From Bispira polyomma (Eukaryota): DNA of 64,000 bases. Position 1 is the first letter of the stretch, and the number at the start of each line of letters is the position of its first letter. The notes under the pieces are model-generated. The model saw only the letters and a program-made list of their open reading frames with translations. It was not told where the DNA came from and did not search any database. The DNA is taken from positions 13,888,001-13,952,000 of the forward strand of contig OZ287753.1 of NCBI GenBank assembly GCA_965649765.1, written 5' to 3'. The position numbers were made by a program, and so were the translations under genes. Below are positions 8,147 to 52,938 of the stretch, piece by piece.

Positions 8147-8824
8147 TGTAGTGTGACAAGGGTCTGGTGGTCAGTGATTGTAAATATTTGAGTTATTGCA
8201 TATAAAATATAGTACAGGAAAACATTGAAACAACAAACTGTCAGACATATAAGTTTAATCAATCATAAGTTTCTACAAACAAATTAAACACATCCAGTCT
8301 AAGTCTAAAACTGGCAAAATATAAACCTCAAGCAATACAAGGTAATGAAATACTAACTATTTATTAATAAAGCAAGCAAATCTATGCAAGTCAAACAAAC
8401 ATTTAAAGCAGTAGACTAACCTAGCTATCAAAACAAAATGCTAAGTCCTACTAAGTAAATACAGTCAACTTCAGAGAATGATAAATTTAGTGGTGTGTAT
8501 CCTGAACTAGGTAAATGAATTAGTTGAGCTGTTAAATTCCAATGGCTACAGATCTAAAGGTGTCTAGATTTCTCACGTGTAAACTGCCTATTAGACTCTG
8601 AAATCCTAACAGATTAACATTATACTGGCTGTATGTAACTAATCATTCCGTCAGTTGGATGTGTATTCCTACCTAGACCTTTCTCTGTCCACCTTACAGT
8701 ATATGATGGCTGATGTAGGTTGATGTTGGTGGGCTGGTTCTCTCTCTAAAATTGCAGCCCTGAGCCCTGTTTGTGTACCCTTTTATACTACCCAAATCTC
8801 GCCGACGAATGAGATCTCGTAACA
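8147..8824 (-). repeat. 3' LTR of Gypsy element 1
   Basis: Minus strand TGTTAC...CTACA. Direct repeat of 15239-15976. A purine tract (GAAGGGTGAG) lies just upstream on the minus strand. Confidence 0.9.
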
Positions 8825-9517
8825 AAATCTCACCCTTCAAGATTTCATTCCAAAATGGCGAAATGTAGCAAGTACCACGATGATCAATACTCAGAAAACA
8901 TGACTCCAACTATTTTAGGGTGTTTTGTTCCCAAACAAGAAAGAACACAACAACAGTAAACTTTAACATCTTTATTACATAATCTATACAAAAATCCAAA
9001 TACAAAAATAAAACAAATCAAATGCAAAAATGCAATACAAATCAAACAGTTCTCATTAAGACTGTGAAAAAACAAACAAACTTGTAAACAAAAGATCATT
9101 AGTGCTATCATCAGTCAGTTCACTTCACTCTAAATGTGTTTGGGCTTCTTTAGAATTAAACATCTATCCTGGGGTTGCATCCCTTTGATACTTTGCCTTA
9201 CAGGGTCAATTTCAACAAGTTGATAGACAATATCCACAGCATATCTAGCATCCACTACATCTATTCCTGGATCTGGGACAGGACTTGGCTACTGGGGTAC
9301 TGAAGCCTTTCTGGAAAGGATAACTTTAGCACATTTGATCTTATCTCTCTTGTTTACCAGGGGTGAAAAAGGCTGTCTGACATCAAATTTGAGCTCTGAC
9401 CGCTCCCTAGGAGGTGTCACAGGTAGTGGACTTAAACATCCCGCTGCAAGTAATTCCTTCATGATTTTTTTTAATGTCTAACTCTTCCTCATTCTCTGAT
9501 AGCCCTGAAGAATCAAC

Positions 9518-9815
9518 TTACTCCACATTCTCTGGGTGAAGTTTGGCCTGTTCGGCAATATCCATGGGTTCACGTGTAGTTGGTAGGATGATAGCATTCT
9601 CATCTTCTCTTAGTGGCTTGGTAGCTAATCCTTCTCTGAACACAGCCCCATGTTGTGCTACTATGTGACGTATGTATACATAGGCTCCAGAGGTAGGATA
9701 ATCAAAATTACATCTATGGCCACACCACAATCTTTCTCCATGCTCTACAGCTAAGTGCATCCTATATTGGGAAACATTTTTGGTAGAACATTTGCACACT
9801 GAGCATGTTCGTGCT
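9518..9815 (-). CDS. Env-position ORF with two C2H2 zinc fingers (probably decayed; may have continued to ~9200)
   Basis: CSVC-x12-H-x4-H then CGHRC-x14-H-x4-H. Preceded on the minus strand by the acceptor TTGTTTTGTTTTCAG (AG at 9817-9816). Confidence 0.6.
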
Positions 9816-9863
9816 CTGAAAACAAAACAATTTTAACATCTAAAAACTATAATATTGTTGTAT

Positions 9864-12760
9864 TTACTTTGGAGGTCTTGTTGTTATACCTGACTTAGTA
9901 GTACTGTTCTTAAATAATATATTCGTTGATTTTTCACCAAATGGTTGTTCAGGCTCTGTAGACTCATTCTGTTTTAAAATATTCTCAAATTTATTATTTT
10001 CCTTGACCAAAACATCGATTGACAGGTGACCTGCTATCTGTTCATCCTGAGTAAAATGGATGTCTTCTGAAAGGAATACCTGCTGATCATTAGTGCAATT
10101 CTTAACTAAAACTTCGGTGTCATTCTCTTCTAAAAGCAGAGGAACTTCATCAGTGACATCCCTTCTCTTTGTTGATCTCAGACAGGAGTGAAGCTTTTCA
10201 TGGGATGGTTTTAGTCTATCATGATGTACAACTTTTGGTTTTGCTGAAGGTCCACTTTGTATTTGATAAACCAAAACTGAAAACTTTCCATCACAAGAAT
10301 GAGACCTGTCCAATATGACCGTAGCTTTGGGGAATTTCCCTTTTTCCTGACTGGATTTACAGGAATACTGTACCCCCCTTCTCATACTTTTTCAAATTTT
10401 TCCGGTGATCAGAGGTGTTTTTTTTGACGATTGCTTGCATCTACCATCTTAGTACGAGCAATTTCATGAACCAGTTTCATTTTCTAACTGAGGTTATCTA
10501 CATATGAAGCAGCTAAATCTATAAGATCATCATTCTGTTCCTTTCGTCCTGTAACAAGATCAATTGGCAGAAGTGGTTCTCTCCCAAACATTATTCTATT
10601 TGGTGAATATCCAGTGGTTTCATGTTCAGCAGTTCGATGGGCCATTATCTAAGTAGGTTCTCCTACTTGATACTGTTTCATGGGTGCCCTTAGGGTTTTA
10701 TTTGGAGACTTCCTCTTATGGCAAGGGTTACACTTCCTACATCAGTGGATTACATTGGTCTTGTAACCTACCTAATAGGCTCTTCTCAGTTTTCCATTGT
10801 TTTCCTAATTCCAAGACGTCCTGAACAAATTGACTCAGGTAAACTTGTAGAGAACTCGGTCGCTAAATATTAGTATTATTACTATGGTACACGCATATGA
10901 TCCAAGTATCTGACTCCATCTATAAAGCTGACATTCTAACTCCTTGAAATTCATAAGCCATCTCAATGAACCGTGATCAGTTCTTATTTAAACGTGTACA
11001 CCATAGATGTATGGATGAAAATGGGTAACAGCTTCTTTAATTGCAAGTAATTCATGTCTGGTGACAATATAATTGCGTTCTGCCTTAGTCAACACCCTGC
11101 TGTAATATCCTATGACTTTTTCTGTTCCTTCTTGCACTTGTGATAAAATGGCTCCAATGCCAGTTCCACTTGCATCTGTGTCAAGTATAAAATCACCTTT
11201 TGGATCAGGGTAAGTCAGAATAGGAGTTGTTGTCGGTCGATATTTCAGTTGGTCAAATGCATCATGACACTACTGATTCCATCCAATGTCTGTGATTTTT
11301 CAGTTAGTCTATGCAAAGGTTTGGCAATACTTGCGAAGGACTTGATGAATTTCCTATAGTATGAACATACACCCAAGAAACTTCTGACTTCTTTAACAGA
11401 TTTTGGTTGTGGCCAATCTTTGACCACATTGGTTTTATTTGGATCAGTGGCAATCTCATCCTTTGAAACAATGTGTCCTAAAAATTTTACTTGTGGCTTC
11501 ACAATAATATCATCCAAATATATCAGACATGTATCAAACTGTAGTCCCGCTAAAATTCTTTCCATCAAGCACTCAAAACTACTTGGCGCATTTGTCAACC
11601 CAAAAGGAAGTACTTTGATTTGATAGAGGCCACTGTGACAGGTGAAGGCTGTTTTATCTCTATCATCAGGATGGACTTCCATATGCCAATAACCACTTGC
11701 AAGATCTAATGTGGAAAACCACTTACCTCCACGTATTGAGTCTAAACAGTCATCAATCCTGGGTAAAGGATCCAAATCCTTTAAAGTGACACTGTTGAGG
11801 TTCCTGTAAAATTCTAACATTTTTTGTATTTCGTCCCTCTTAGCTTGTCTCTTTGACAAGGGAAATTGATGTGGTTGTTGCTTCATTGGTTGGACACTAC
11901 CTGTATCAATTCTATGCTCTATAAGCGTTGTATGTCCTAAATCAGACTTTGATTTTGCAAAAATGTCAGAAAATTAATTTAATAATTTCCCTACTTGTGT
12001 TAATTGTTGTGCATTCAATTGATCCTTGCAGGCTGACCAGATGGTATTCAAATGCTCAGAAATAACGGCTGAGGAGGCCTGCTTAATACTGCAACATTTC
12101 CCGTCAACTGCTGGAGATGTATTGTCAATTTTGTCAACACAATGACCTATTCCTAAAATATTTTCTCTAATAAAATGGACCTCTTTGTCACGTGGATTGA
12201 AAACTTGAACAGGAACATTTCTGGAACTTGTATCTACTAATACTCTTGCCAATACAATACCCTTTGTCTTAATAAGCCTATCTTTTCCCTGTACCATTAA
12301 AAACTTTGGAAGGATGGATGACTCGTCACTCTGTAGGTAGGCTAGTAGAATCATTTCACAACTTGGTGGAATGGTTGTGTCTGAACATTATGTAATTGTA
12401 AAGATGGATAGTAGTTCGTTCTCAAGATGACAAGGAACATCCTTTCCTTTGATGCGCACCACTCTATTTCCTACATCAATAGTACAATCATTTTCAAACA
12501 GAAAATCATTCCCTAAAACTAAAGGTTCTTCAATTTCAGCGACTATCACCTGTTTTTGAAAGATCCTAGAACTAAAACTAAGTGGTAAAATCACTTCTCC
12601 TAGTGGTTGAATTCTGTTTCCATTTGCTACTTCGATGTTCTGATTGTCGGTTGCAAACTTGGTCGTCTGGAATTTGGTATACTATAGTATTTGCTTGAAT
12701 GCAAGATACTCCTGTTAGCACCTGGATCAAGTAAACAATTAATTAATGTTTCCTATTCTA
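9864..12760 (-). pseudogene. pol: Gypsy pol (protease, RT, RNase H, partly deleted integrase)
   Basis: LLDPGA (protease), PLPRIDD, LDLASGYW, PFGLTNAP, YLDD, FILDTDASG (RNase H), KVVHHDRLKP (integrase C-terminus). Confidence 0.9.
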
Positions 12761-12830
12761 GCTTTCATGTATAAACCTCCATTCCAAAACAAGTTAGGTC
12801 TTCCTTCTTCCTCCGCTGATGTACGACTTT

Positions 12831-14200
12831 CTACCTCAGCTCTTTCTGGTTTAAAGGTGGAGTCGTTGAATTTTCTTTTAAATCCTTCTTGCACTTGAAA
12901 TAGTCCCTTTTGAAATGGCCTAATTTTCCACTATAAAAACATTTTATCTTTGACTTGTCCAACTTGTAAGTAGCCTTATTTTTAGATGGTTGTTTTTGTT
13001 TTTGAATCCACAAACATATTTCATCTAATTTCTGTTCAATGGGTGAATCAGTTTGAACCATTGTGTCCCCAGTGCACTGCTCCCATAAGTTTAATATCGG
13101 AAATTTCCGTTGTCTACTCATCCTGAAGGCTTCCAATTCGATGGAAACCCATAAAGCATCATTCAGATTTCTGGCTTGACTATAAAAAACTGCCAACTCA
13201 ATTTCTCTATCATTAAGGGAATCTAAGAAACTATCTTTTGCCAAAGTTTCCCTTATATCACTTGTAGTTGGATTTGATAATCTTCCCAATTTCCTGATGT
13301 CTTGCACCAGCTCAGGTAATGATTTATTTACCTTTCTAATTCTGTTCTTCAATTGTGCCCTGTAAAGTTGTGTTTAGTTGTCTGGCTCAAACCTTACTTT
13401 CACGGCAAACAACAAATTATCATAAATTCTTCTTTCTGTTGGCCGACGGTCACTCAAAACAGCAACAGCTGAACCACGCAAACAAGCAGCAAGCTCTTTA
13501 GTCATGGTATTTCTATCCTAACTATTCATTTCTGAAACTAATTCAAATTGAACCAAAAATTAATGGAAACATCCAGATTTGTAGGAGCAAAACTTGCCCA
13601 TATATTGGTTGGCTGTTCTATTTTTCCGTTTTGATTGTCTCAAAATGTTTCCGTAGGTTGGATGTCTTGCAGATCAGGCATAATGTTAATTGAAAATCCC
13701 CTAGGGGATGTGTACATCTGCTGACCAGGAGACATGCTCCTACAATGATCAGAATACCTGCCAAAATCCATACCACGCCGATCACAATCTAGAAGTGGTG
13801 TCTGAACCCAATGACCCTCTGTACATTCAAAAGAATGTGGCGTAAACTCCTCTGAATGGGCATTACCCTTGTAAGGAGTACTGTGTACCTGAACATAACC
13901 CTTACCAGCTAACTCCCTGATTATCTCAAAATCTCTACTAGGATTCTCTAGCCTGTATCCAGTTTCTGTAAAACCAACATGTCTCTGGTAGTTTTTATCC
14001 CTATGGTTAAAAACTAAATCCCTATTTACAGCAGCAAGTGTGACATTAGGATGAGCTGACCGAACCATGGGTTTGCTTCGGTCCCCTGCTACATTGCCTC
14101 TGTTAACACTAAAACAATCATCTTTAGCATCCTCTAATATATTCATGTTAACAACAAAATCTGAGGACTGTGATTCTAATTTCATGCTGTTTCTAAACAA
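12831..14200 (-). pseudogene. gag: Gypsy gag (disrupted)
   Basis: ORFs 13640-14200 and 12831-13352; LAKDSFLDSL; degenerate knuckle CFYSGKLGHFKRDY. Confidence 0.8.
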
Positions 14201-15217
14201 AACTTATCTACATTAAAAAAAATATACAATATCTGCAAGAAAATAAACAACAGGAGAATGGCCTGGCGGCCATATCATGATAATGCCACTAAAAGCAAGT
14301 TACTGACCACTCTTATCTTGTTCATATTGTGACACATATAGCTTCTGTAACTTTTATCCTTTAAAATACTCCAGTTAACCTGTATGCAATATATTGGGTT
14401 CACAATATTTTTTTCCTCAGCTTGATACAGTAAGTATTCTAAAATTTGCTCCTGTATCTAAAATTTGCCACCCTTAAAATTTAAGGCAAATAAATAAAAA
14501 CTGGAAAAAAATAACTGGTAAGGAAGGCAAATATTAGTCATAAAAATATCAATTGAAGCAAATATTAACCACAATTCTACCCAAAACACAATATTTTCTA
14601 GGTGGCGAATTTCAGATGGTGGCAAATTTTATATTCCTTACAGCTACAACCACCAATCAACCAAAGTATGTATATATATATATATATATATATCTTCCCA
14701 AACCTAATGTTTGTCATATACTGTATATATATTCCTTTTGAAACCATTTGAAATGGGCGGTAATAGACCCTTTAATCAAATCTGAGGCTCCCAATATATA
14801 AAACTTGAATAACTTCTACTATACTGCACATAATCACACCAAATTCATTTTGGACCAACTAGAGACAATAGAGTGTATATATACTAAATATAAGAGCACA
14901 ACTCCCTACAGATTCAGAGATTACCCTGGTGACACGTCGTAACCATGTGTAACCAAGGGTCTTCCACTATCTCCTTCTTTCTCCAGGAAAACATGATTAT
15001 GCCAATAAGCATTGGCATAATCATGCAAAAAAGTTACCTTTATTTGCAATAAATATCAATTCCAAAATATAAATATATTTTGTTCTAACTCTGGTGAAAT
15101 CTCAGTTAAAGCTGGATGATCTTTCACATATAATGTTGGTTGTTCAACTTCGAGTTGGTTGAAAGGATCAACTTCTAGTTGGCTGATAGATTCTATGAGT
15201 CTTGGTAGACCAGTTAA

Positions 15218-15234
15218 TCCCAGCACTGCCACCA
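15218..15234 (-). promoter_or_regulatory. Primer-binding site, tRNA-Leu-like
   Basis: TGGTGGCAGTGCTGGGA lies 4 nt inside the 5' LTR boundary and is complementary to a tRNA-Leu-type 3' end. Confidence 0.8.
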
Positions 15235-15238
15235 AATA

Positions 15239-15976
15239 TGTAGCGTGCCAAGGGTCTGGTGGTCCGTGAATGTGAATATTTAATAGTTATTGCATATAAT
15301 ATACAGTACAGGAAAACATTGAAACAACAAACTCTAAGACATGTCAGTTTAATTAATCATAAGTTGCTACAAACAAATTAAACACATCCAGTCTAAGTCT
15401 AAAACAGGAAAAATATAAATCTCAAGCAATACAAGTTAATAAAACACTAAGTATGTATTAGTAAAGCAAGCAAATCTATGCAAGTCAAACAAAGATTTAA
15501 AGCAGTAGACTAACCTAGCTATCAAAATAAAATGCTAAGTCCTACTAATTAATTACAGTCAACTAGTTGCTACAAACTATGTTCATTCCCAGATGACCGG
15601 ACTGACATCTTCAGAGAGTGATAAATTTAGTGGTGTGTATCCTAAACTACGTAAATATAATTATTTGAGATGTTAAATTCCAATGGCTACAAATCTAAAG
15701 GTGTCTAGATTCCTAAAGTGTAAACTGCCTATTAGACTCTGAATTCTTAGCAGGTTTACATTAAACTGCCTCTATGTAACTAAACATTCTGTCCGTTGGA
15801 TTAGTATTCCTACCTAAACCTTTCTCTGTCCATCTTGCAGTATATAATGGCTGATGTAGGTTGATCTAGGTTGATGTTGGTGGGTTGGTCTTCTCTCTAA
15901 AAATGCAACATTGAGCCCTGTTTTGTGTACCCTTTTATACTACCCAAATCTCGCCAACGAACAAGATCTAGTAACC
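15239..15976 (-). repeat. 5' LTR of Gypsy element 1
   Basis: Roughly 90% similar by eye to 8147-8824, with an extra ~47-bp segment near 15564-15610. Confidence 0.9.
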
Positions 15977-29000: not shown

Positions 29001-32000
29001 TTCGAAATTTTAATAAGTGATGTGTAAGAGTACATAATGTACTCCCCTAAATAAGGTGACCTTATGCCCCAAGTACTGTGATTCTTTATTTATTGACCTT
29101 TGGTATTTCTTTATTATTTAACAGATAAAATTTTAAAGTTTGAGGTGAGAAGAGATATCCCAAACCACCAAGCCCAAATCTTTCTAGGGGGTAGTTTGTA
29201 GGGCCGTAGCAAAGGAATCAGCCACTTGAGTGCCTACCTGAGCAGAATCGGTAATATATCGCCACACGCAATCCGACGTCTAGGTGCCATGCCGCTGAAT
29301 GTCCTGCAGACGAACATTGTTATAAAAGCGAACGTGGCCTCTGAACGCCGGAATGCATGAAAGGTTAAATTTGAATGCTGCATATCCATTAAAGCCAGAA
29401 CATTCTTGAGTTGGCGTCTCACCCGATTATTCGTCATTGGAACCCAAGAACTATTAATCTTATACTGAAATAAAGGGTCGTTCTTGCCAGGGAGAGACAC
29501 AGCTAGTACAGCTTTTAGGGCCCTGACTGGGCACAATTTAGAAGAGGGGAGAGCTGGTAATGACAAAAGCCTCACTGCATCATTAGTTTGCAAAGTCTTG
29601 CTCCATTTAACCAAAAGAAGAACATAGCCAGGTTTAAACAAAACGTTTAAGGGACGAGAACGCCGCCTTAGAGTGGGGGCACAAATTAGATAAACGGAGA
29701 AAGCTGAAAAAACTTGTTACATACATAGCTTTAAAAATAAGACCCATATAGGTGGATTCACATTTTTCTACTACTTTTAACATGAGAGGAATGTCAAACA
29801 CACTTTTTAACTTGACCTGAAGTGGTCTATTAACCAGGAGAGCCCTAGTATACTAAGAAATCCTAGGGTCAGAGAAAGCTTGGATATCCATATGGAATAG
29901 AATTCATTTAGCTTTTACAGCCGACAAGTAATTGGCAATTTGAGAAGAAGACACACTGTTATAGCTTAAAAATTCTAGAAAAGTAAGAATATGGAACACA
30001 TTCACCTGGGAGGCTGGCCAAGCCATAAAAATGCTGAAAGTTGTAAAAAGCCTAAACATGCTATCATAAGCAGCAGTGGTAGAGGCAGCTAGAGCAGTGT
30101 GCATCCTCTTGCAGGCCAGACTTGTCAGCAAATTTTCAATAGGATTACTTCCTGAAAATAAAACAAAAATTTTGTTAAATATCAATATCTATTTCCAATA
30201 ACGCTTCATCAGTCGGAAGCCATTTTACAGGGCCTACCCATTCATGCAACAACTGCACATTATTTTTTGTCTTATCCCACCTGGATAGGAGGTCGGCAAC
30301 CTTATTTTTGCCACCAAGTATGTGAATAACTTTAATGTCTATGTCGAACTGACTGACCCACATATACATATTTCTAGTGTAGGTTGCCAGGACCAGGTCC
30401 TGGGTGCGACCACTGGTCAGAACGCTAACGACGGCCTGATTGTTGCATTTAAATAATACTCGTTTACCTTGCCAATTACTGGTCCATAACTTTATAGCCA
30501 CAAGGATATTGATCATTTCCAAATATGCAATATTATGTTGAGACATATTCTGTGGGACAGTTAACTTGTACACTTGCTCATCATATATACCCCCCATGCC
30601 AGTCAGACAAGCGTCCAGTTCCACCTGGGCATTAATTGGTCTATGGGCAAAGAAACTAGTACCATTGAATTGCTGCATAAATGTGCTAAACCAGTTAAGA
30701 TCTCTTTTGAATTCGGTAGTAATTGAGAATCTTTTCTTGCTATGGTTATCTCTTAAGAACTGTAACATTCTGTTAAGGTATACCTGAGCATACTTGATAC
30801 ATTTCGAGACGTATAAAAGGGACCCAAGCAATGACTGCAATTCTTTTTAGTACAACTTTGCTTATTCTCCCATACTTGACATAATTTTTTAATTTTGTCC
30901 ATTGTCTCTACAGGAATCGAAGTGGTAAAGTCCACTGTGTTAATTAAGATGCCTAGGCATACTACCCTTGTGTCAGGAGGAACTAGCTTTTTGGGGCTGA
31001 CCTAATTCACCCAAAAGAGTCTGTCATATATAGTAGTGATTTGACTCGGAAGAGCTACACATAAAAAATCATCGATGTAGGCATGGATGTGAAATCCCTC
31101 CTGTAACATAATAAATCGAACCGCATCCGAAATTCTCTGAAAAATAGTGGATCCGTTCTGAAAGCCGAACGGGAGAGATCTATCCAGATATTAGGAATCC
31201 CACTTTAAACCCAACAAATCTACGTCGCCTGGATCAATAGGCACGTGCCTGAATGCGCGACTTATGTCCACCTTGAATATCTGACAACCTCTGCCTAATT
31301 TTTGGACTTCATTGGTGAGATTATCAACTGAAGGATAGGATAATATAAATTCTGTAGCAAGATATTTGTTGGAAAAAGCCCCCAAATTTACCGACTCGCC
31401 AATTGGCCAGCTAAGGTCAACAATGACCCGCCTATTACTCGAGCTGGATTCATTGCGCGTCATCATGGGGGAAAAATGCATTTTTTCTATTGGTGGGCTA
31501 CGAAACGGGCCCAATATAGCACCATGCTTACATTCTTCTTTTAAATAAAGGTCTACGTGTTCTGGAAAGACATTGGCTGAGCTGTGATTGGAGCCATCCG
31601 ATTGACTAATGTTTTCACGAATCACATCAAACTACTGAACTTTATTCTGGGTACGCCATTCACAATACGTGGGGTTATTTTTAGCCCTTTTTAAAAGCTC
31701 TTTTTTGTTGATTTTTTGCTTTAATTCTAAAGCATATTTATCACTGACTACAGTGTCCTCAGTATCCACTGGTTTTGTTTTATGCCAAATACTAGCACGT
31801 ATATCAACAGTATTGCGTCGCACTGAGCTACTATTTTTTTCTTCTATGTATCTGTTTGCATCACATTATTTGTGTTGACAGAGTCGGTCGAATCTGAAAA
31901 AGCTCGTAAATTGAACCTATTGTGTACAGATACTGGGCTAGGGTCACACATTTTAAATTCTTTACAACTTTTGACTCCCCTTCTCTGTCTATACTCAGCC

Positions 32001-35000
32001 TCGCCCTCAGCAGTGCTTTCCCCCCCACTAGTCTTGCCCTTGTGGGGGGTAGTACCGCATGGGTCTGGCCCGAGATTGACAATAGGGTGTTTGCTTTTGT
32101 TTCTATAATATGTGTGACTTTCGCTAATATATGCTGACTGTTTATTTGTGTTATACACAATACTGGAGCCAGCTTGATTTGCGTCCCAAGAAATACCTTG
32201 CCGAGGTTTTTTAATCACTTCACTATAGCACCTCTGTTGTACTGACACATTTTTGTAGCGATATTTCTGTCTAATAATTCAAAATTTTTAAAACCTGTCC
32301 TGTAGAAATGTCTACTAGAACCTTTCTTGTCGCCCACTGCATTGCTGCAGTGGGCTCCTAGTTTTTTGCCAATTTTCGGTTACAATTGCTGCTTTTATGT
32401 GCCCCAGCACAAGTTTCACATACATGCTTAAAAAAGGTATTTCCGCTCTTGTGGCTTGAAGGAAATTTGCACGTGCCTTCTTGATAAAACTTGCAGTTGG
32501 CAGAGCCCTGCTTCCCCATCCCCACAGTCTTGTTACTACTACTGCCACTACGAGTACTATTATAGCTACTGCTACTACTAATGACATGTCTCTGGGCATG
32601 AGCTCACCTCAACCGGTCTAATTTTTCGACTTCCGTCCATTGAAGTTTGTCAATTTCCATCGTGGTAAACTCGACCGCATGGCAGGCTTTGGCTGCCTCC
32701 CAGGAAAAATCCTGAGAGTCCTCCATTAAGCCTGCCATATAATCTAACATGATTTCCGGCTTTTTCTCGTCTTGAATTATTCTGGTAAACCCACAGACCC
32801 ACTGGCTAAGGGATAGATTATCATAACTCAGACGTGTTTTAAAATTGCCTGACAGAACATGATTTTGAGGCCATTCGACCACCCTTTTAACAAGCACGTC
32901 GACCCCCCCCCCTTTCTCTGGGACTTAATCTTGCCTTTTTTCGGGTTTTCATTGATTCCTTAAGCTTGACTAGCCACTGCTCGACCTGGATCTGTATGCA
33001 GGTATTTTTCTTCAAGAACTCGATGCTAGGAATCACATTATCATCACTTATAGTATTGACCTATTCAACCGAAGCAGTCACTGGACTAGCGTTGGAAATC
33101 GAACTGTCCTGAGTTTTAGTAGAGTTCGTGCTCAGAGCCGCCTCCGTGATCAAAACACGCTTGTCAAGTCGTTCCATCATCTGGCCCATACTTTCTAATT
33201 TCAACAGTATTTTACTAGAGACAATGGCCAGACTATCAGGAGCTTTGGACACTGCCCCCACGTGCAACACCCGGTTACATTTGTTACCAACTGGCCTAGC
33301 GTGTTTTCCCATACATTTTGCACAACTATAGACTTTAATTCGTGGCATTATGAGAGAGGTTAGTTACACTAAAAATCTTAAATTGTAAAAATAGTAAAAT
33401 ATAAAAATGTAAAACACAAAACAAAGACTCTCTGCCAAACCCTTCAGGTTATTCTATTTTGAAGTTGTTCTTCTGCTGACGGTTGATGAAAAGGAGGGAG
33501 ATTTGAATTTTCCTGCCTTTTATATGCAGCCAGGCGTGACCAACAGTCTGGTACCCCAAACTGAACCCACCAACGCTAGGGCGTTGCCTTGTAGAGTCGC
33601 CTGCTTAGGAGGCTGTACCAGTGGTATCTCAAGATGAATTGGAAGTTTCCTCAGTCGCTGAATATTTCAATTTCTGGACGATTGTGGCATGAACGAATGC
33701 CACAGTCATCTAGATAACAGCCTAGCATATTCCAGGGGATTTGAATGTTTTGGCAGATGCTCAATCTTACAGAGACAGGTTGATTCAGACAAAATGGTTT
33801 CTAAATCCTCATGTTGCATGATTATTCATTGTTGATATCAACATGTGGTTGATTTGTTTGCGCTAGATCATAATTTCAAGCTGCCACGTTCTGTCTCCTC
33901 TGTCTTGAACAATCAAGCTTGTATATACCCATTGGCTGGTTAAGGTAGTGATATACCTTTTAAATTCGCATGTCTGCGTTGGCTAATGGGTTGGATGGCT
34001 CCAACATAAAGCAATATTAGGAAATGTATTTCTAATAAAAAATTTAATTGACAATTAAATTTTTGAAATTTGCAAAAAACGTTTCGGGATAAATACGCAT
34101 TAGTTAAACTCTGATATCTGCACATTTACTTAAGGTAACAATATAAAATAAATGTTCTGAAAAAGCAATAATACACTTTCTCACGCTTTTACATCAATAG
34201 TAGCAGTCTTTGATAGAATTTTCAAATTTTTGCTTCATCACCATTTATTGTTTTCTCGACAAGAAAGTGAAAAAGCAGCAATTTAATTTTTATAGACCTC
34301 ACTATGTTGGGCTGTGGTCGTATTTAATGGCTGTTTTGTAAACGACAAAATCTACACAACAAAAATGGCAACTATGTGGGGGGATATTGGAAATTTTAAG
34401 GAAAACTTATATTAGCTGTAAGAATTAGACCTCACTTATCGTCTGTATTTGTTTTTTGGGTTTACATGCAAGAACTTGTGTGATTAATAGCACAACTATA
34501 TGTACAACTATATGTAAGCCTGAATTGTAAGTTCCAACTCCAGTTTTCATCACCGACACATTGAAATGAGTATTGGCGTCCATTTTTGTTGTCAGTTACA
34601 CAACATACACTTTACAAAAAAAAGATATACAACAGTCTTCTTAACCAATGAAATCACTTCATACTAACAGACCTTGACCTAAGCAGTGCTGTTATAAACA
34701 TCTTAATCGTGGTCTCTGATCTTAATAAAATTTTCAAAATACAAAATATTTTACCCTCAAATTAAATAATGTGTTTGTTAGGTTGTCAGACCCTGGAGCT
34801 TTTATCTCTGAAGAGGTTGCTGTTGTAATTTTTTTTATGAATTAATTGGCTTTAACTGAGCCATAATAAGTCATTTACCTTACCCTTACTTTTGGCCAGC
34901 TCAAGATTGTGACCCTTTACCGATCACTGGCTTCATGTTACTATTTGTAATAATTTTTTTTAAAAACATTAATATTTGTAGTGATTTTTTCCCCTTTACC

Positions 35001-38000
35001 TTGTAGATATTTCGAGTACAGCTCCGAGGTTCCAAGCCTCTCTGGATAAGAATCAAGGTACATAGTTTGCACATGTAGAATTTGTAACTGCAATACAGTT
35101 TTTGCAATTTCGATCTTGTGTGTGTAATTCCTTTAATGAAGTCATCGGCTTTTGTGAGTGAAAGTATAAGATGTTTACTTTAACTACTAGTGCTGGGATG
35201 ACATTTGAGATATATGACCCATTTTGTAGAAATGTTTGAAATACAGCCAATTAATATATCAGGCGTCACTGACAACCTGATACTATTTGTACTCATATAT
35301 TTTTTGGAAATTACTGTTTGTACGGATTTATTTTTTTTATTCTTGTAGATATTTCGAGTACATCTCCCAAGTCCCTTGCCTCCCTGGATATGAATAAAGG
35401 TACAACATGTTCATATGTAGACATTTTGACTGCAATAAAGTTTGAACAATTTGAACTTGAAAAATGGCCAAGGGACCTAGTGGTTAGCAAGCATTGCGCT
35501 TCACAATCACTGGTCTCTCACCTCTGGGCGGCGTGAGTTCGACTCCCGTCGATGCCTATGTGGGAAAGGTGATAGTTCCTTACTGTGGGCTGCTGGTATC
35601 AGTGCAGAACCTTGATCAACTGTATGCAGTGTTTCCTCCAGCGTTTCCAACTACCCGTCCCAATATAACCTAAAACAGGTAATAGAGTGGACGTTAAATA
35701 TCCCAATTTAAATTCAAATTGAAAAATGGCCAGTTTTACTTGAAATGAAAATTGATCTAAAATTAAGTTCACTTTATGTTTCTTATCAGCCGCAGCTGAT
35801 ATTGTTTCAATTCTGAAACGGGTATTCATTAGAATATATTTTGACAAATATTTTATATTCCTAAATGAAAAAGATACAAGGAATTAGTTTATAAAACTCT
35901 CCACAAGCAACTTGTTTTGTAACTGCTTGTCTTCTTTTGTTCATATAATCAAATAATACAGACCACTTGTAAAGTTATTATTTTGTATTGTACCATTCTT
36001 CCAGATACTAACAGTGATATAGTAACAACCTGCACCTCAAGATTGACAGGTAAATCTCTTGGATGTTAATAATCTATATTAATAAGATGAATGTTAATTC
36101 ATTACCAAACTCTTTCTGGTATATATATGAATAAATATGTCAGTTTGAGGAGAAAGCTAATGAAAACACATACTTCATACAACTATTCTATTAGAAACAA
36201 CATCCGGGTTCTACACAAACACATATCCTCGATCAATCTACTCTCCGGTATATATGCCACTGTTAGAGTATTACTGCATATTGGTACATCCCTTCTCTTT
36301 CAAAAGAAAAATTACAGGACACTCATTTAACTATAAATTAAATAAATCCACCTGGACTATAACTGATGTGAGTTATATTGATTTTGTTTCACAGACTTTT
36401 TGTACAGTTAAGGAACATTTAACTACCTATAAAACTTGAAAATAATAGCTAGCAAATTTGTTCTTTGAAGAAACAGTCTAACTGTAAATAAAAACAAATT
36501 ACACAACCGAAAATAACTAAATTTAAACATATTGCATTATAAAGAAAGAGGTGTCAACAACAACAAAATTCTTAGATTACCATGAAGTAATTATTAATTA
36601 ATATGAGCATGTAAAGAAACTAACAAAAAGTCTAAAAATATACATTTGTAAGTCATATATAATATATTAAGAAAGTCAAACATTATATTTCACATATTCA
36701 CATAGAGCCATAACATACATAACTTAAAGGCTATTGGGTAGTAATAATGTCTTTAACAGCATATTTTATATTTTAACAAGAATAGTTCTTTAGATATTCG
36801 GGAGCTTTGTGTTGTCTGTTAGAGCGTCGCACTCCAGGGCTGCTTTCTGGTTCCAAGCTGGTCTTTTCTGTGGAAACAACCTTATCTGGTTTCTGGTCAC
36901 ACTTGTTGTTATCGTTAACATTTGGCTCATTAGAAATCATTGCTTCATCCTGGTTGTGTACATTGGAAGTGTCATCACTTTTGTCGCGATCAACGTCTGC
37001 TTCGTTTGTGGTTTTAAGATCATGTCTTTTTCTGCGATAAACTGTAGCCTCAACCTCATATAAACGTTCGTCAAGTCTTTTGAGTAATTTAGCCTTTCTC
37101 CAGTCTTCTCGGTTGTTTACCAGTGGTCGCAATCTGACCACTTGACCATCACATAGAGGTCCCAGGTCTTTTGCATGTTTGTCGTAGTACCATTCCTTCC
37201 ACATATCTCGCAACATTTGATTCTTTTTTTACTGTTTTACTATCTTTCAACAGTTCATCTTTCACTGGCAATATTGTCCTTGTCATTCTTGTGAACATTT
37301 TTTGTGCAGGGCTGGAACCAGTATCTTGTGATGGTATATTTCTGTACTCTAAGATGGCTATGTGGGGATCTTGGTTATTTTTTACGTGTGTTCGTCAACA
37401 AATTGGCTTCCCAAAAATTGCTGTAATAGTCAACAGCGATCAAGCAGTATTGGTCTTCCAGATCAAATGGACCAATACTAACTTTTTTATAAGGTCTGTC
37501 TGTAAGTTTATATAAAATAAGAGTTTATTTTTGTTGCTTCATGTTATACATGTTACAGATTTAACACTGTTAGAAGTACTCCTTGAGGTCACTGTTCATT
37601 CCTGGCCAGAATACCCAGTCATGGGCTCTGCGTAAACATCGTCCAACACCTGTGTGTGTAACGTGAAGCCCCTTACGGATTTCTTTCCTCATAGCTGAGG
37701 GGACCACAATCTGGTTTGCTTTAAAAACTAAACTATTGTGCACAGTAAGTTCATCTCTTAAATGAAAATATGGCATGACCTCTAATGGCACTTGATTTTT
37801 TTTGTTCTGGCCAGCCAGTTCCGATTATATCCGCTAACCATAGAATCACTGGGTCTGACTGCGAAACCTCCTGAATAATCTTCAACCTTTCTTGTCTGAC
37901 AAGTGGATGTGCTAATTGGCTCACACAATCATTAGATTCTGGTCCTGTGGTGTCTTTTAAATAAGATCTAGACAAAAAATCAGCTATGTGCATTCCTTTA

Positions 38001-41000
38001 CCTGGTGTATACTGACTGTTTGTGTTGTACTGCAATTTCAAAATTATCCCTTGCAGTCGCTTCGGCGCAGAATGTAGTGGTTTATTCACTATTGTTTGTG
38101 GTCAGATAATATGGTAGCTTTTCTACCATATGTGTATTGGTGGAACTTTTGTATAGCAAAGATTACAGCCAACATCTCCTTTTCAATCTGGACGTATCTT
38201 CCTTCGGTTGAAGTCAACGCTTGGCTTGCATATGCAATTGGGCAATCATTCTGTAACAATACACATCCAAGTCCTGATTGGCTAGCATCACACTGTATCT
38301 AGAGTTCTTTAGATGGGCCATAGTACATCAGTACTGGACTTTTTGTTAACGGGTGTTTCACCTCAAGGAAAACCTTTTCCTGGTCCGGACTCTAAGTCCA
38401 CTGTGTATTTTTGAGTCAATTGTCTTGAAGGTTTCATCACGAGATAACTTTGGCGGGAATCTTGCCAGATAGTTTATTATCTCACCTAGACTTTGAATAT
38501 CAGCGACACATTTTGGGGTTTCCATTTTTATTATGGATTCAACTTTGTCTGGGTCCGCCGCTATACCTTCTCGACTGATTTTGTGTCCTAAGAACGTTAT
38601 CTCCCTAAACATGGTGCAGAGCCAAAATTCATTTCTCAAGTCAAATTTTGAAAATATGCGAGCACCTGTCATCTCTGAAGGTATGTCATCGATTATTGGC
38701 AATGGATGCATCTCCCTTTATAACACCTGGTTGAGGTATAATGGGTCAATGCATATCCTGATGTCATTATTTTTTTTTATTCCTGCAACTATTCTTGAAA
38801 CCCACTCTGTTAGCTCTTAGACTTTTACTATTATCTTTTCATTTTCCATTTGTTTAAGTTTTTTCTCGACCCGTTTTCTAATGCTGATAGGTATCCTGCA
38901 TGATGCAATAGCTGTTGGTAGTATCGATTTGCCCACTTCATCAGCAAGTATGTCCTTGAACTCTGACAATATACTATCAGTATGACATACTGCCTGAATG
39001 CTGTTATAATTCACTTTGATTAATTCCATCTGTTCACTGGCCTTTTTACACAAGATTGGGGTTATATTTTCTTTCACCACAATGAATTCCACATTGTACT
39101 TCTTTTGTGTTTTCGGGTTTCTAACAGTTATTCTACAGCTGCCTTTAACGTTCATTTTTGTGGAATCCCAAGTTATGTTTTATATCCGTAAGGAGCAGTG
39201 GTACATCCGGTATCGCTGAGCGTGAAAGAGCATTAACAGTTGCTCCAGTGTCTACTTGAAATAGTACTATTTCCTGTTTATCAACTAATTCCATATCAGC
39301 CAGTAATGATTTGTTATTCTTTTTCTCATCATTGACAGTCATAACATATTTCACCTCAGAACTAGATTCTGTTTCATCTCGTATAGCGTGTACCTAATTA
39401 TTCTTGAGTTTTCTTTTTATCACCGGTTTTGCATTTTACTGCATAGTGATTTCTTCCATGACATTTCGTGAAAGTCTTACCATAAACCAAGCAGTTGTTT
39501 TTGCCCCAGGCATGCTTTCTGCCACAAAAGTCACATTCCTTGTAGTGTTGTGAGATTCTGTCCCTACCGTGTCCCTACCGCATGCCACGATAGCTGTTAG
39601 GCCTACCTTTCTGTCTTGAATCCTGATGTTGTTGACCAGATACTGCATGTACTGAATCTTTAGTCTCATGAAACGAGGCTAACTGTCTTTTGGCTGACTG
39701 ATGGATCCCACAAATTTTAACAACTTTATCAAATGTAAATCGTTCAGGTTTTCTTTGTAGAACTTTTCACGGAGATTGTCCACTCTACAACCGAACACTA
39801 ATCTTTCTCTCGTTTGTGTCAATGCTTCTTCAACACTAAAATCACAATTTCTCACCATCGTGATAAACTGGTCTATGTTTTCGCCTTTTCTTTGGTTCAG
39901 CCCACTAAACGATTTTCGTGCACTCAGCTGATTATTCTTTGCATTGAAATATGCATCTAGTTTGGTAATAACTCTCATACACTTTTGATTCATCCGGAAC
40001 AGCTTCTGTTGTTGCTGCCTATGTGAGAGAATTATATATTGCTTTCAACTCACCACCGCCTAGATTTATCAGCAAGACTATTTTCTCTTCATCACTCTTG
40101 AATTTGAATCCAGCTGACAGCATAAAGATTGTGAAATCTTCCTTGAAGTTTCTCCACATTGCTTCATTATTTTCATCAATGGCACTTTTTCAGGGAGAAA
40201 GAGTCCTATAAGCTGAGCCATTATTTTGAATGTCAATATAGCATATAGTATTATAAATATATACCGGTACACACATCACACAAAGGTTTCACACAACAAC
40301 AAACCAGTATAATCACCACTACAGTAGGTACTTGTATATAAATAAAGCACCACCACCGCTGCACACCATGTATAAGTATGTCAGTTTGAGGGAAAAGCTA
40401 ATGAAAACACATGTACTTCATACAACTATTCTATTAGAAACAACATCCGGGTTCTACACAAACACATATCCTTGATCAATCTACTATGCGGTATACACGT
40501 CACTGTTAGAGTATTACAATATATTTGATTAAAAGGCATTAGGTAAAATGATAATCAGAATCGAAAATTTAAAAATTGATGAGATTGAAAAAAATTAACA
40601 TCAAAAGATCAACTGTTATCCAGGAGACAACGATGGAGCAAATACACAATTTCGCAAGTATGTTTTATTTAACAATGGAAAGAATGTAAGGTAGGAGCTA
40701 TCCTGGTGCAATGAGGTAAACTTCATTTTGTGGCTTTTCTCTCCTGGTATTATCACTGCATAGGGCAAAGTAAATAAAAAACTTGTAGCATTCAAAAATG
40801 TCACACCTGTGTCTAACAGAGGGCCAATTGAAATACTTTAGCAAGCATGTAAAAGCCTAGACAAACAACCAATTTTATTTGTGAAACTGCGAAACAGTGA
40901 ATTGCAATTATCAAGTTGGTACCAACAAGAGCATTGGCGGCTGTGATTGCAACATATTTTTTCTCTTCTGACTGCAAGACCTGCATATTGATCCCACGTG

Positions 41001-42602
41001 ACTAGAGTAGTCAATCAATTTATTTCCAGCAGGTGATAGTGATGTTCCAAGAGTATTGACTGGACTCCATAGCTGTCCCCTGGATATTAGTTGATCTTTC
41101 AATTAATTTGATAGATAATGATATCAATAATAGCCTGCTTCCCGGGGTACTTCAAGGTAATACATTTCGAATTTGATGTGGCAGTAGGCCCAGTCAAATA
41201 TTAATGCTACATTGCAAAACATACAATATATATTGTTTTATAGCATCAACATTTTTTTCCTATTTTTGTTTCTTTATTTAGAATACAACATTCAAAGAAA
41301 GAGATTAGAGAGAATATATTCATCATGTAGAAGATTGGGTAAATTATCAAATATAACAGAACAATATGAACATAAAATTTACAAAAGTCAAAAGAATATG
41401 ATCTTAGTGGATCAGAAGCACCACGTTACATTGCTTGGTTTACAAAAAGCTGGCTCTTCAACATGGAAATTGGCTTTGCTTAACAGCAGTGGAACACTTA
41501 AATCAGGCGATGTGAAAGGTATTCATACAACAGGCACCTTTAAGCGTGCCAAAGGAGTATACACAAATATGGCCTGCCTTATGGATCCTCAACTTGTTTT
41601 TACAGCACTGAGGAACGATTGTGTTATCTTAAATGTTCGGCATCCCTTTGACCGATTAGAGTCGGCATATGCAGATAAGGTTGTCGCAGAAAGACATGGT
41701 AGCGTTAGAACCACTATTCTAAAGAACAGAGGGCTGTCAGCCGAAGAAGTGGATAGGCTTAAAAACAATGGATCCAACATACAGTTCCACGAGTTTTTGC
41801 ATCACATCCTCTCTCACAATGACCATCATTGGGAGGCTCAGTTTAAGATCAGCTTTACTTGTGTTATTCCATACGGGTAAGTGTTTGTTTTATTTTACAT
41901 TTTGAACTAAATATGCACAGATTAAAATAATGTCAGAAGAATATAATGATTGGCCACTCTATGTAGCGATGATATGATCTACGCAACGTAAAACCAACAA
42001 AATTTTAAACAAAAGTCAAAGCAAACATGTCTGTAGTCATATTTGCATTTAGAATAGACGTTGATTGAAGAATATTCTACATAATTCATCAGCTGACTAT
42101 GGATGGAAAGATATATTTTAAATGAAGTCTCTCATTTTACTTAGATCACGATGGTAAAAATAAAGTTGCTCCTTATAATTTAATGCTGTCATCTGATGGT
42201 AGATAAAGTATTGTTTGCAATTTTTGTGATCATACTTACATTTTAGTTATCTAATATTTAAATCATTTTTTTCCTTGTTTTGATTACAGATATATTGCCA
42301 AATTAGAAACAATGACAAGGGATCTCAACATTGTTACTAATCAATTACTGTCAGGGTATGGCACAAACAAGAGATGGAATGTCAGGAGGAAAAACACAAC
42401 ACTCTCTACAACATACACAACAACACTTGGCCGTTATTTGCCTATTTTCTCAAAGTTGGAAAACAAGACGATGTGGGTAGACAAAATGGCAGAATACTAT
42501 AAATATGATCTTGAAGTGTTTGGTTACTCGTATTATTTTGACTCCAATGGAGATCTTTTTGCTACTTGTGTGGAGTATGATTCATTTGGCAACTGCATAT
42601 AG
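22954..42602 (+). CDS. Carbohydrate sulfotransferase (CHST8-14/Sulfotransfer_2 family), ~402 aa; join(22954..23056,25407..25457,35007..35057,35349..35399,36005..36049,41282..41876,42290..42602)
   Basis: All junctions are GT-AG and phase-compatible; 1209 nt open frame. N-terminal signal anchor, 5'-PSB LQKAGSSTWK, 3'-PB VRHPFDRLESAYADK, NDHHW, YIAKLETM, YKYDLEVFGY. Linking the 5' exons to the catalytic exons is inferred. Confidence 0.8.
25407..25457 (+). CDS. 51-nt stem microexon, copy 1
   Basis: TTGTAG|...AAG|GTACAT; (D/G)ISSTAPTLLASLDKNQ; phase 1-1. Confidence 0.7.
29200..30185 (-). pseudogene. Ngaro tyrosine recombinase
   Basis: FSFLRLSNL (~29690), WSKTLQ, CPVRAL, HAFRRS, and HG*TSDCVWRY in a shifted frame. 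Confidence 0.9.
30175..31830 (-). pseudogene. Ngaro RT/RNase H
   Basis: RRVIVDLSWP, KVDISRAFRHVPIDP, LPFG, YIDD (~31070), LDACLTGMGG, HNIAYLEMIN, NKVADLLSR. Confidence 0.92.
32300..33348 (-). pseudogene. Ngaro gag-like ORF1
   Basis: CAKCMGKHARPVGNKC; WPQNHVL..LSYDNLSLSQWVCGF..DFSWEAAKACHAV; frameshifted. Confidence 0.75.
35007..35057 (+). CDS. 51-nt stem microexon, copy 2
   Basis: TTGTAG|...AAG|GTACAT; DISSTAPRFQASLDKNQ. Confidence 0.7.
35349..35399 (+). CDS. 51-nt stem microexon, copy 3
   Basis: TTGTAG|...AAG|GTACAA; DISSTSPKSLASLDMNK. Confidence 0.7.
35471..35718 (+). mobile_element. tRNA-derived SINE, slightly 5'-shortened
   Basis: 14-bp TSD TTGAAAAATGGCCA (35457-35470, 35719-35732). 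Confidence 0.93.
36005..36049 (+). CDS. 45-nt stem exon
   Basis: TTCTTCCAG|...CAG|GTAAAT; DTNSDIVTTCTSRLT; phase 1-1. Confidence 0.6.
36128..40518 (-). mobile_element. Gypsy LTR retrotransposon of the Mag-like group, internally deleted, with short (~150-bp) LTRs
   Basis: LTRs at 36128-~36275 and 40369-40518. PBS TGGTGTGCAGCGGTGG abuts 40368; PPT at ~36289-36300. FQVDTGA, FSKFDL, APKRLQ, HTGVGRC..WPGM. Possible ATATA TSD. Confidence 0.9.
41282..41876 (+). CDS. Sulfotransferase catalytic exon
   Basis: Acceptor TTTCTTTATTTAG, both PAPS-binding motifs, donor GG|GTAAGT. Confidence 0.92.
42290..42602 (+). CDS. Sulfotransferase terminal coding exon
   Basis: Acceptor TTACAG. The phase-2 join gives CVIPYG-YIAKLETM, followed by YKYDLEVFGY and a TAG stop. 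Confidence 0.92.
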
Positions 42603-51600: not shown

Positions 51601-52938
51601 GTTTTCGTTTAAAATGAAAATTGAAAGGATCAATATATAGGTAAATCGCGATTTTTAAACCCCAAGTATATACATATCAATCTGTGTCCTTATACTGCAA
51701 GATTAGTTCTGGTGACGTTATTATGACGTTTCATATACAGGTGCTTCACGTTTTTGACAAATTACAGCTTTATATGATGGAATATATACTGCAAGGAAGA
51801 AAAATAGAAAATTAGGTCGCGTAATAATAATAATGGATAATAATGGCAAAATGCTAGAATATTTACAAGGAATAAAAAAAACTATTAATAAAAAAGAAGT
51901 ACACAGATAGATATACATGTGGTATTTACTAAACAATGCTAATGCAGAGTAGTTCTGATGACGTCATTATAACGTTTCATATAGAGTTTATAAAAATATA
52001 TACATCGAAATAAAACAAAAGGAAATGGATGGAAATCTGAAAAGAAGTAAGAAACAATATTTTGCCTTATATCTTCATGTTATTTCCATAATATTTTCTT
52101 GTTCTGCAAATGAGTAGTTCTGGTGACGTCAATATAACGTTTCATATACAGTGTATAAAAATATATACATCGAAATAAAACAAAAGGAAATGGATGGAAA
52201 TCTGAAAAGAAGTATGAAACAATATTTTGCATTATATCTTCATGTTATTTCCATAATATTTCCTTATTCTGCAAATGTAAAATATACTTGTAGTAACTCA
52301 AGTACATACACAGATTTTGACCGCTCAGATTATGTGCGTAATTTACAAAATATGGCTTCACAATTCCATTTCCTCAAATACCATTTAATTTATTTCTAAT
52401 TTCGAAGTAATAAAGCACTCTGCTCTGATTTCGAAACACAAGTAAGATATACTCTTTTTTTGCCATACAAATATATATAGCATTTTTAAAATTTACCTGT
52501 ATATTAATCCATTCAATTGGCATCCATTTTTGCTATGCAGAAGTCCATGTGTTTTTTTGTTAACAATAATCATCTGTTGATCACCGGAAATACCGTTTTA
52601 TAAAAAAATTGAAGATTGTGGCTTCACAATTAGATGCAATATCCTTAAATAAAACGTAAATAATATTTACCTTATGTATATCAGGCCTGCTTACACAGTT
52701 TTTGTTGCAATTATATGACTTAAACATATTAAACATAATTTAACAGTATAAACACCATTTTTTTTCAATATTTTGGTCACAATTATGGCAAAACTTCAAT
52801 AAAATCTCACCCTTTAACAAAAAGTAAATATAAATACTTTTGCATCTTCTGTCAAAATGTGAGGCCATTATTTAGATTAATAACTGTGAAATAGCATATT
52901 TTTCATCTCTTGGTATCTTGCAGAAGTTGCTTTGTTTA

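Follow-up and report, generated by a model that had tools for sequence, protein, structure and literature searches.

A conserved gene predicted to encode a two-zinc-finger protein occupies the env position of a Ty3/Gypsy retrotransposon

What does a Gypsy element gain from a reading frame that sits in the env position and spells out two zinc fingers? Most open reading frames in this position of LTR retrotransposons are, according to the relevant passages of PMC10309623, of no known function. Those of recognized kind comprise fusogens and enzymes, together with a single exporter of RNA. The locus considered here lies in a window, the whole stretch of 64,000 nucleotides that was analysed, in which an earlier note had proposed a spliced gene for tandem C2H2 fingers belonging to a Gypsy element.

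Positions 8147-15976 (minus strand) are identified as a Ty3/Gypsy LTR retrotransposon by the presence of reverse transcriptase and RNase H domains, together with an integrase C-terminal domain, in Gypsy order. The broken pol region (9864..12780, minus strand) gave Pfam matches to PF00078 (E 6e-19), PF17919 (E 2e-31) and PF22938 (E 1e-7), in that order. On the same strand, the 5' LTR (15239..15976, 738 bp, with a TATA box at 15939) and the 3' LTR (8147..8824, 678 bp) stand in direct orientation and agree in 612 of the 678 ungapped columns of their alignment (90.3%). Four bases past the 5' LTR a primer binding site (15217..15234, minus strand) starts with TGG and, as we take it, resembles the 3' end of tRNA-Leu. 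The broken region at 12831..14203 (minus strand) is called gag from its position alone, and a Pfam search of it gave no noteworthy match. Numerous stops and frameshifts interrupt gag and pol, the integrase catalytic core appears to have been lost near 10655, and this copy is, judging by its reading frames, dead. Comparison of the element's flanks, of which the 5' one is a G/GT run, gave no matching target-site duplication.

Other copies were represented by the contig sets of three runs from one study (X1, X2 and X3), which possibly include the window's own source. Since contigs of all three carry a different letter there, the integrase stop at 9864 on which the earlier note had relied, although present in the window, probably interrupts the frame in this copy alone. 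The leader contains a very-high-copy repeat unrelated to the element (14246..15031), recognized by its depth, which exceeds 100,000 in four bins; it has loose ends at 14246 and 15031 and bears a terminal hairpin at 14992-15025, and contigs of all three runs skip it with a joint at 14231-15036. It resembles a Helentron-associated short element. Where the window has this repeat, other copies have 53 different letters, which may hold a small leader intron.

The frame of interest lies in the interval from pol to the 3' LTR on the sense strand of the element. Both finger motifs reported in the note are indeed present there, in one minus-strand frame (9832-9518), finger 1 being C-x2-C-x12-H-x4-H and finger 2 C-x3-C-x14-H-x4-H. 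A search of all six frames of the window with the tandem pattern, written after the motif had been seen, gave a single occurrence, and none of 200 base shuffles contained it. The gene had been placed at 9200..9830; the location holds and the extent does not, as it spans 9815 to about 9133 on the minus strand, starting at most about 50 bases from the end of pol. Its parts, all on that strand, begin with a polypyrimidine tract and AG acceptor (9816..9837), whose phase and position fit six of six N-terminally complete relatives. Next come the two C2H2 fingers in tandem, joined by an HGE-x-x-W linker (9628..9815; family profile E 5e-29 over 9823-9518), and then an acidic variable linker (9496..9627) that in the window's copy contains a stop (9520-9518) and a frameshift near 9495-9480. 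The middle block (9397..9495), in which an LxxLL-type helix precedes a Ser/Thr-Pro motif, was recognized from invariant columns of the family alignment and gave 45-63% identity by tblastn. The last part is a Pro/Ser/Thr-rich linker with a C-terminal motif (9130..9396; family profile E 1e-16 over 9495-9145), where this copy has a stop at 9291, a damaged last motif and the final stop at 9132-9130. Beyond the two profile intervals, no match to the family profile with E below 4 was found in the window.

A tail containing LSPLPVTPP had been described as lying past a stop. It belongs to the same protein family, in a different frame from the fingers, and this change of frame is what places a frameshift at about 9495-9480, beside the stops at 9520 and 9291. 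Because one family profile maps both fingers and tail, in adjoining frames, we regard them as parts of one gene. Pfam applied to the window's fingers gave zf-met at E 0.0012, which does not pass the cut-off, and Rfam returned two matches, both far under threshold.

A phmmer search over 1.84 billion proteins produced nine matches, seven of them true relatives at 37-53% identity; the other two (P0002 and P0009) were dropped as repeat artefacts. With two members added by a cluster look-up and eight new ones by a profile search (15 matches; the new ones all from ENA assemblies), this unnamed family comprises 17 proteins, in about seven groups when grouped by eye. What they share is, in order, two fingers joined by an HG-acidic linker, then an acidic linker, then an L-x-x-L-L helix that precedes PPGCLSPLPxTPP, and, after a Pro/Ser/Thr-rich linker, a C-terminal motif some 45 residues long. 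The Cys/His spacing is kept in finger 1 of all six complete relatives and in finger 2 of all eight examined. The 36-residue finger block contains no indels and is 44-92% identical over 36 pairs, and the linkers vary from 51 to 90 and from 43 to 241 residues; an indel-free finger block with variable linkers is the pattern that would be expected under selection on protein function. L-x-x-L-L is invariant (13/13 alignment rows). Helix position 6 is Arg in 11 of 12 rows for finger 2, but Leu or Met for finger 1, where positions 2-3 vary. A basic patch is found in eight of nine relatives.

No membrane segment was detected in any of nine relatives, the maximum 19-residue Kyte-Doolittle hydropathy being 0.57-1.02 in a scan that left out the first 14 residues (intron-derived or unknown), and an identity as Env, which the note had already set aside, was rejected for lack of a transmembrane anchor. 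The protein is predicted to be soluble and about 220-400 residues long. Searches of Pfam, PDB sequences and the Atlas gave no match to the middle and C-terminal motifs. In the Atlas the whole protein retrieved generic C2H2 clusters and the C-terminal half no usable match, and the family's Pfam C2H2 matches are under the curated cut-offs. Word-index searches for longer or fused family forms found none, which is weak evidence. Taken as a sequence family, the frame is a conserved accessory gene, the third gene of a Gypsy element, in the env position and for a two-zinc-finger protein; on this point the note was borne out.

In one relative, P0005, an integrase C-terminal domain (PF22938, E 1.6e-15) runs straight into the family fingers, and this integrase end is 45% identical to that of the window's element. 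Scans of the JGI metagenome and IMG/VR collections for loci of relatives found none, and since three collection scans gave no locus, P0005 is the one relative seen in its genomic context. Linked to integrase both in the window and in P0005, the third gene appears to belong to the element. The segment is also carried by contigs of the three runs. Summed contig depth, which is not copy number, was 122, 543 and 122 over the fingers in X1, X2 and X3, against about six times less (19, 97 and 19) in the flank, the value in X1 being comparable to that of pol (about 95-120). Bin 9220-9503 had a depth of 44.7 in X2, below the X2 flank (96.7), and of 99.9 in X1 and 107.3 in X3. One diverged contig spans the end of pol and the fingers (9587-9973), with 22 letters different. 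Taken with due caution, these data indicate that the finger segment is present in other copies. The only repeats around it are A-rich ones, which stem from the pair of pyrimidine tracts, and a single additional 8-mer; in the absence of a distinct target-site repeat a separate insertion was rejected. The three findings that, according to the note, would overturn its reading (family copies without the segment, unconserved Cys/His spacing, a separate insertion with its own TSD) were looked for, and none was obtained.

Elsewhere in the window, a second, unrelated Gypsy-like remnant (36127-40525) has 158-bp terminal repeats that are 90.5% identical, and it gave no match to the zinc-finger family profile. 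A further remnant at 29234-32278, with RT-, RNase H- and recombinase-like frames, is DIRS-like by eye, Pfam giving RVT_3 alone. A sulfotransferase coding frame (41188-41880; PF03567, E 3e-17) lies beside a near-perfect palindrome of about 22 kb (41945-63890, arms 99-100% complementary, centre near 52920), which either arose by inverted duplication in recent times or is an artefact of the assembly.

The strong acceptor announced in the note was found: it ends at 9816, so that 9815, the third base of a codon, is the first base of the exon, and with 9 pyrimidines in 12 positions it ranks by pyrimidine count among the best 14 of the element's 321 YAG sites. We compared the residues at -5/-4 before the first Cys of finger 1 (Cys1) in the six relatives that keep it (five groups) and in the window; the relatives have FS, FS, CR, FS, FS and FS, and the window FR. 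All seven of these N-terminally complete sequences fit a fixed YAG acceptor, in a single phase, followed by a free base, the swap of Ser and Arg at -4 being explained by a fixed AG and then a free base. Further upstream, relatives and window alike show Phe/Leu/Cys-rich stretches, which are accounted for by a pyrimidine tract read as codons. P0018 reads the acceptor region in a shifted frame and is compatible with P0001 over 14 codons; on the assumption that the two are near-identical copies, the two-frame deduction allows TTC AGT alone. There is no conserved start codon, the internal Met having been rejected as such because it is Leu in four of the six N-terminally complete relatives. This replacement, and the opening of the 9815 exon on the third base of a codon, argue that a 5' coding exon is needed. 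The acceptor phase conserved across six relatives and the window strongly implies that the third gene is expressed through splicing, as had been proposed. Probably, a spliced subgenomic RNA joins a short 5' coding exon, either an LTR mini-exon or the start of gag, to 9815.

The donor suggested earlier, near 15037 (15032..15040), did not hold up. A donor after 15038 exists, adjoining the high-copy repeat at a point where other copies match only up to 15036, and it was rejected as the coding partner, with zero open codons upstream, in this copy, in the frame that the fingers need. Ten of the 34 donors scored have some in-phase upstream ATG, and the phase fit of a donor is for that reason weak evidence. 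Two donors are plausible, one after 15814 in the 5' LTR and one after 13758 in gag. The former would close a candidate coding mini-exon (15814..15833, minus strand) made up of an ATG at 15833, six codons in all and two bases, in the phase that the 9815 acceptor requires and with a score of 7.6 on a rough matrix. This ATG is the second after the TATA box, the first (15911) lying at the inferred start site, and because an ATG is missing from the corresponding position of the 3' LTR the mini-exon is to be taken as a candidate only. The latter donor also fits in phase, 142 codons past an ATG at 14185. Strong acceptors in the element are those at 15398, 14232, 9815 and 9061. The last (9061-9105) comes right after the third-gene stop, with a branch-point-like CTAAT, and may define a further spliced RNA.

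The fold was modelled with AlphaFold2 (P0004, 13 sequences), which gave two C2H2-type hairpin-helix fingers with helices at residues 22-32 and 52-62 (pLDDT 65-93 by blocks over residues 1-70). The LxxLL block is modelled as a short helix, and confidence is low in the remainder (mean 55.9), the C-terminal motif included. Against solved structures the family profile matched CTCF best (E 7.6e-4), and VIA-align on the model gave YY1 (Z 3.9) and the RNA-binding finger complex 1un6 (Z 3.0). Foldseek had no match at E<=0.001 and VIA-align none at Z>=5; their lists, though weak, consist nearly entirely of C2H2 proteins. A C2H2 hairpin-plus-helix fold is thus predicted, with an interfinger linker that resembles the TGEKP type.

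What might such a protein do for its element? We propose, giving the idea a little short of an even chance, that it is the element's own nuclear transcriptional activator, directed at the LTR. The pair of fingers would recognize a short LTR site, host co-activators would be recruited by the acidic linker together with the LxxLL helix, the basic patch would carry the protein into the nucleus, and the Ser/Thr-Pro block would act as a switch controlled by phosphorylation. In this scheme the spliced RNA would come early, and full-length transcription would then be stimulated in the manner of retroviral transactivators. That the protein is laid out like a small transcription factor is suggested by the near-canonical linker, the Arg of finger 2, the acidic linker, LxxLL, the SP/TP sites and the basic patch, and the meanings of LxxLL, acidic, basic-patch and SP/TP motifs are well established. 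The best solved-structure matches, CTCF and YY1, are likewise DNA-binding tandem fingers. However, the fold matches are weak and generic, C2H2 fingers bind RNA and protein as well, two fingers confer little specificity, finger 1 carries Leu/Met at its helix position 6 with positions 2-3 variable, and the 14-residue spacer of finger 2 is unusual. The context of the gene is seen in P0005 alone among relatives, and the favoured 5' ATG is missing from the 3' LTR. Moreover, the one well-studied spliced nuclear Gypsy protein in the env position, CERV, is described in the pertinent passages of PMC10309623 as exporting RNA and being dispensable for transcription. The more specific claim that an animal Ty3/Gypsy lineage encodes a C2H2 transcription factor of its own, sequence-specific and made from a spliced RNA with its start codon in the LTR, we consider possible though doubtful.

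The spliced nuclear protein could instead act on RNA in the manner of Rev or CERV, its fingers binding a structure in the genomic RNA and its Leu-rich block linking to export, so that intron-containing unspliced RNA leaves the nucleus. This is unlikely, but several strong splice signals imply that the element faces a retention problem, 1un6 is among the weak fold matches, and CERV, as portrayed in parts of PMC10309623, offers a precedent that is in the env position, spliced, nuclear and phosphorylation-controlled, with a Cys-rich finger. Against it, prolines follow the Leu-rich block, and LxxLL fits better there than a classical export signal. Tandem C2H2 fingers with a canonical-type linker, moreover, mostly read DNA.

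Quite unlikely, too, is a chromatin factor that marks copies of the element and counteracts their silencing by the host, or that anchors the integration complex at favoured sites. DNA-binding-type fingers with short conserved motifs in disordered linkers would suit an adaptor, and anti-silencing proteins encoded by plant transposons are known; yet no chromatin-reader or enzyme domain was detected in the family, and targeting would be achieved more simply by a fusion with integrase, an enzyme that already carries a C-terminal domain of its own.

We think it very unlikely that the gene is real and unspliced, its translation beginning at a start codon of its own or depending on re-initiation or recoding past the pol stop. 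Gene callers set the start 8-13 residues before Cys1 in five relatives, and the gene opens close to the end of pol, within the 50 or so bases given above, but the called starts lie at differing distances, P0005 has Val in place of the Met of P0001, no in-frame start precedes Cys1 in the window, and the upstream Phe/Leu/Cys-rich residues look as if derived from a pyrimidine tract. Least likely is a captured host zinc-finger exon or a separate insertion, a passenger with no role for the element, for although an acceptor at the gene start is the expected remnant of exon capture and context is seen for few relatives, the gene is conserved across families with integrase ends only about 45% identical and other copies in the same organism carry the segment. 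The captured host exon of the note, if recent, is accordingly not supported; an ancient host origin of the fingers is possible.

If the activator proposal is true, the family would be a retrotransposon counterpart of the transactivators of complex retroviruses, using the very finger fold that hosts turn on retroelements. A conserved family with fingers of DNA-binding type suggests that some Gypsy elements control expression in trans, as complex retroviruses do. Intact natural relatives exist in public assemblies, so that location, binding site and reporter activity are testable.

Among known systems, the closest working analogue is CERV of Cer1, a Ty3/Gypsy element of C. elegans, which the relevant passages of PMC10309623 describe as spliced, nuclear, in the env position, sharing exons with gag and needed for export and not for transcription. 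CERV is 517 aa long, comprises H, M and G domains, may contain a C4 finger and, in those passages, has no obvious homology outside nematodes (PMC10309623). Compared by described architecture, the window's family differs in having two C2H2 fingers and mostly disordered linkers, and a gag donor after 13758 would parallel the gag-shared exons. Errantivirus Env, like the gene described here, is the third gene after pol in the portions of PMC3383448 and PMC13524379 that treat it, and spliced expression is stated for ORF3s generally in part of PMC5408684. Env is a transmembrane glycoprotein, whereas the window's family has no hydrophobic segment. The pertinent part of a 2012 review reports that accessory genes had not been shown for errantiviruses (PMC3383448). 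The ORF3s of bdelloid LTR elements, described in sections of PMC5408684 as fusogens, GDSL esterases, DEDDy exonucleases and TM proteins, are likewise captured accessory modules in the env position, but they are enzymes or membrane proteins, and the words zinc and finger are absent from the main text of that paper. The sORF2/FAST-like proteins of MDG1-group elements, membrane fusogens encoded downstream of pol in some Lepidoptera (PMC11952523, in the passages concerned), are accessory products as well, but small membrane proteins without fingers; the family lacks their single membrane segment. The word zinc is absent from the main text of surveys of mollusc, annelid and metazoan env genes (PMC6238403, PMC8556966, PMC13524379). 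Our literature search turned up no publication about a third ORF with C2H2 fingers in Gypsy elements, for which a Repbase, Dfam or GyDB entry is possible, and a zinc-finger third gene of a Gypsy lineage is apparently undescribed.

Foamy virus Tas, HTLV Tax and HIV Tat are retroviral transactivators. The proposed spliced nuclear activator of the LTR would resemble them in mode, with no homology expected, and we know of none among the three that uses tandem C2H2 fingers. With the host proteins CTCF, ZFAT and YY1 the window's family has the finger fold and the linker in common, whereas it differs from them in its two fingers, the 14-residue spacer of finger 2 and downstream motifs of its own.
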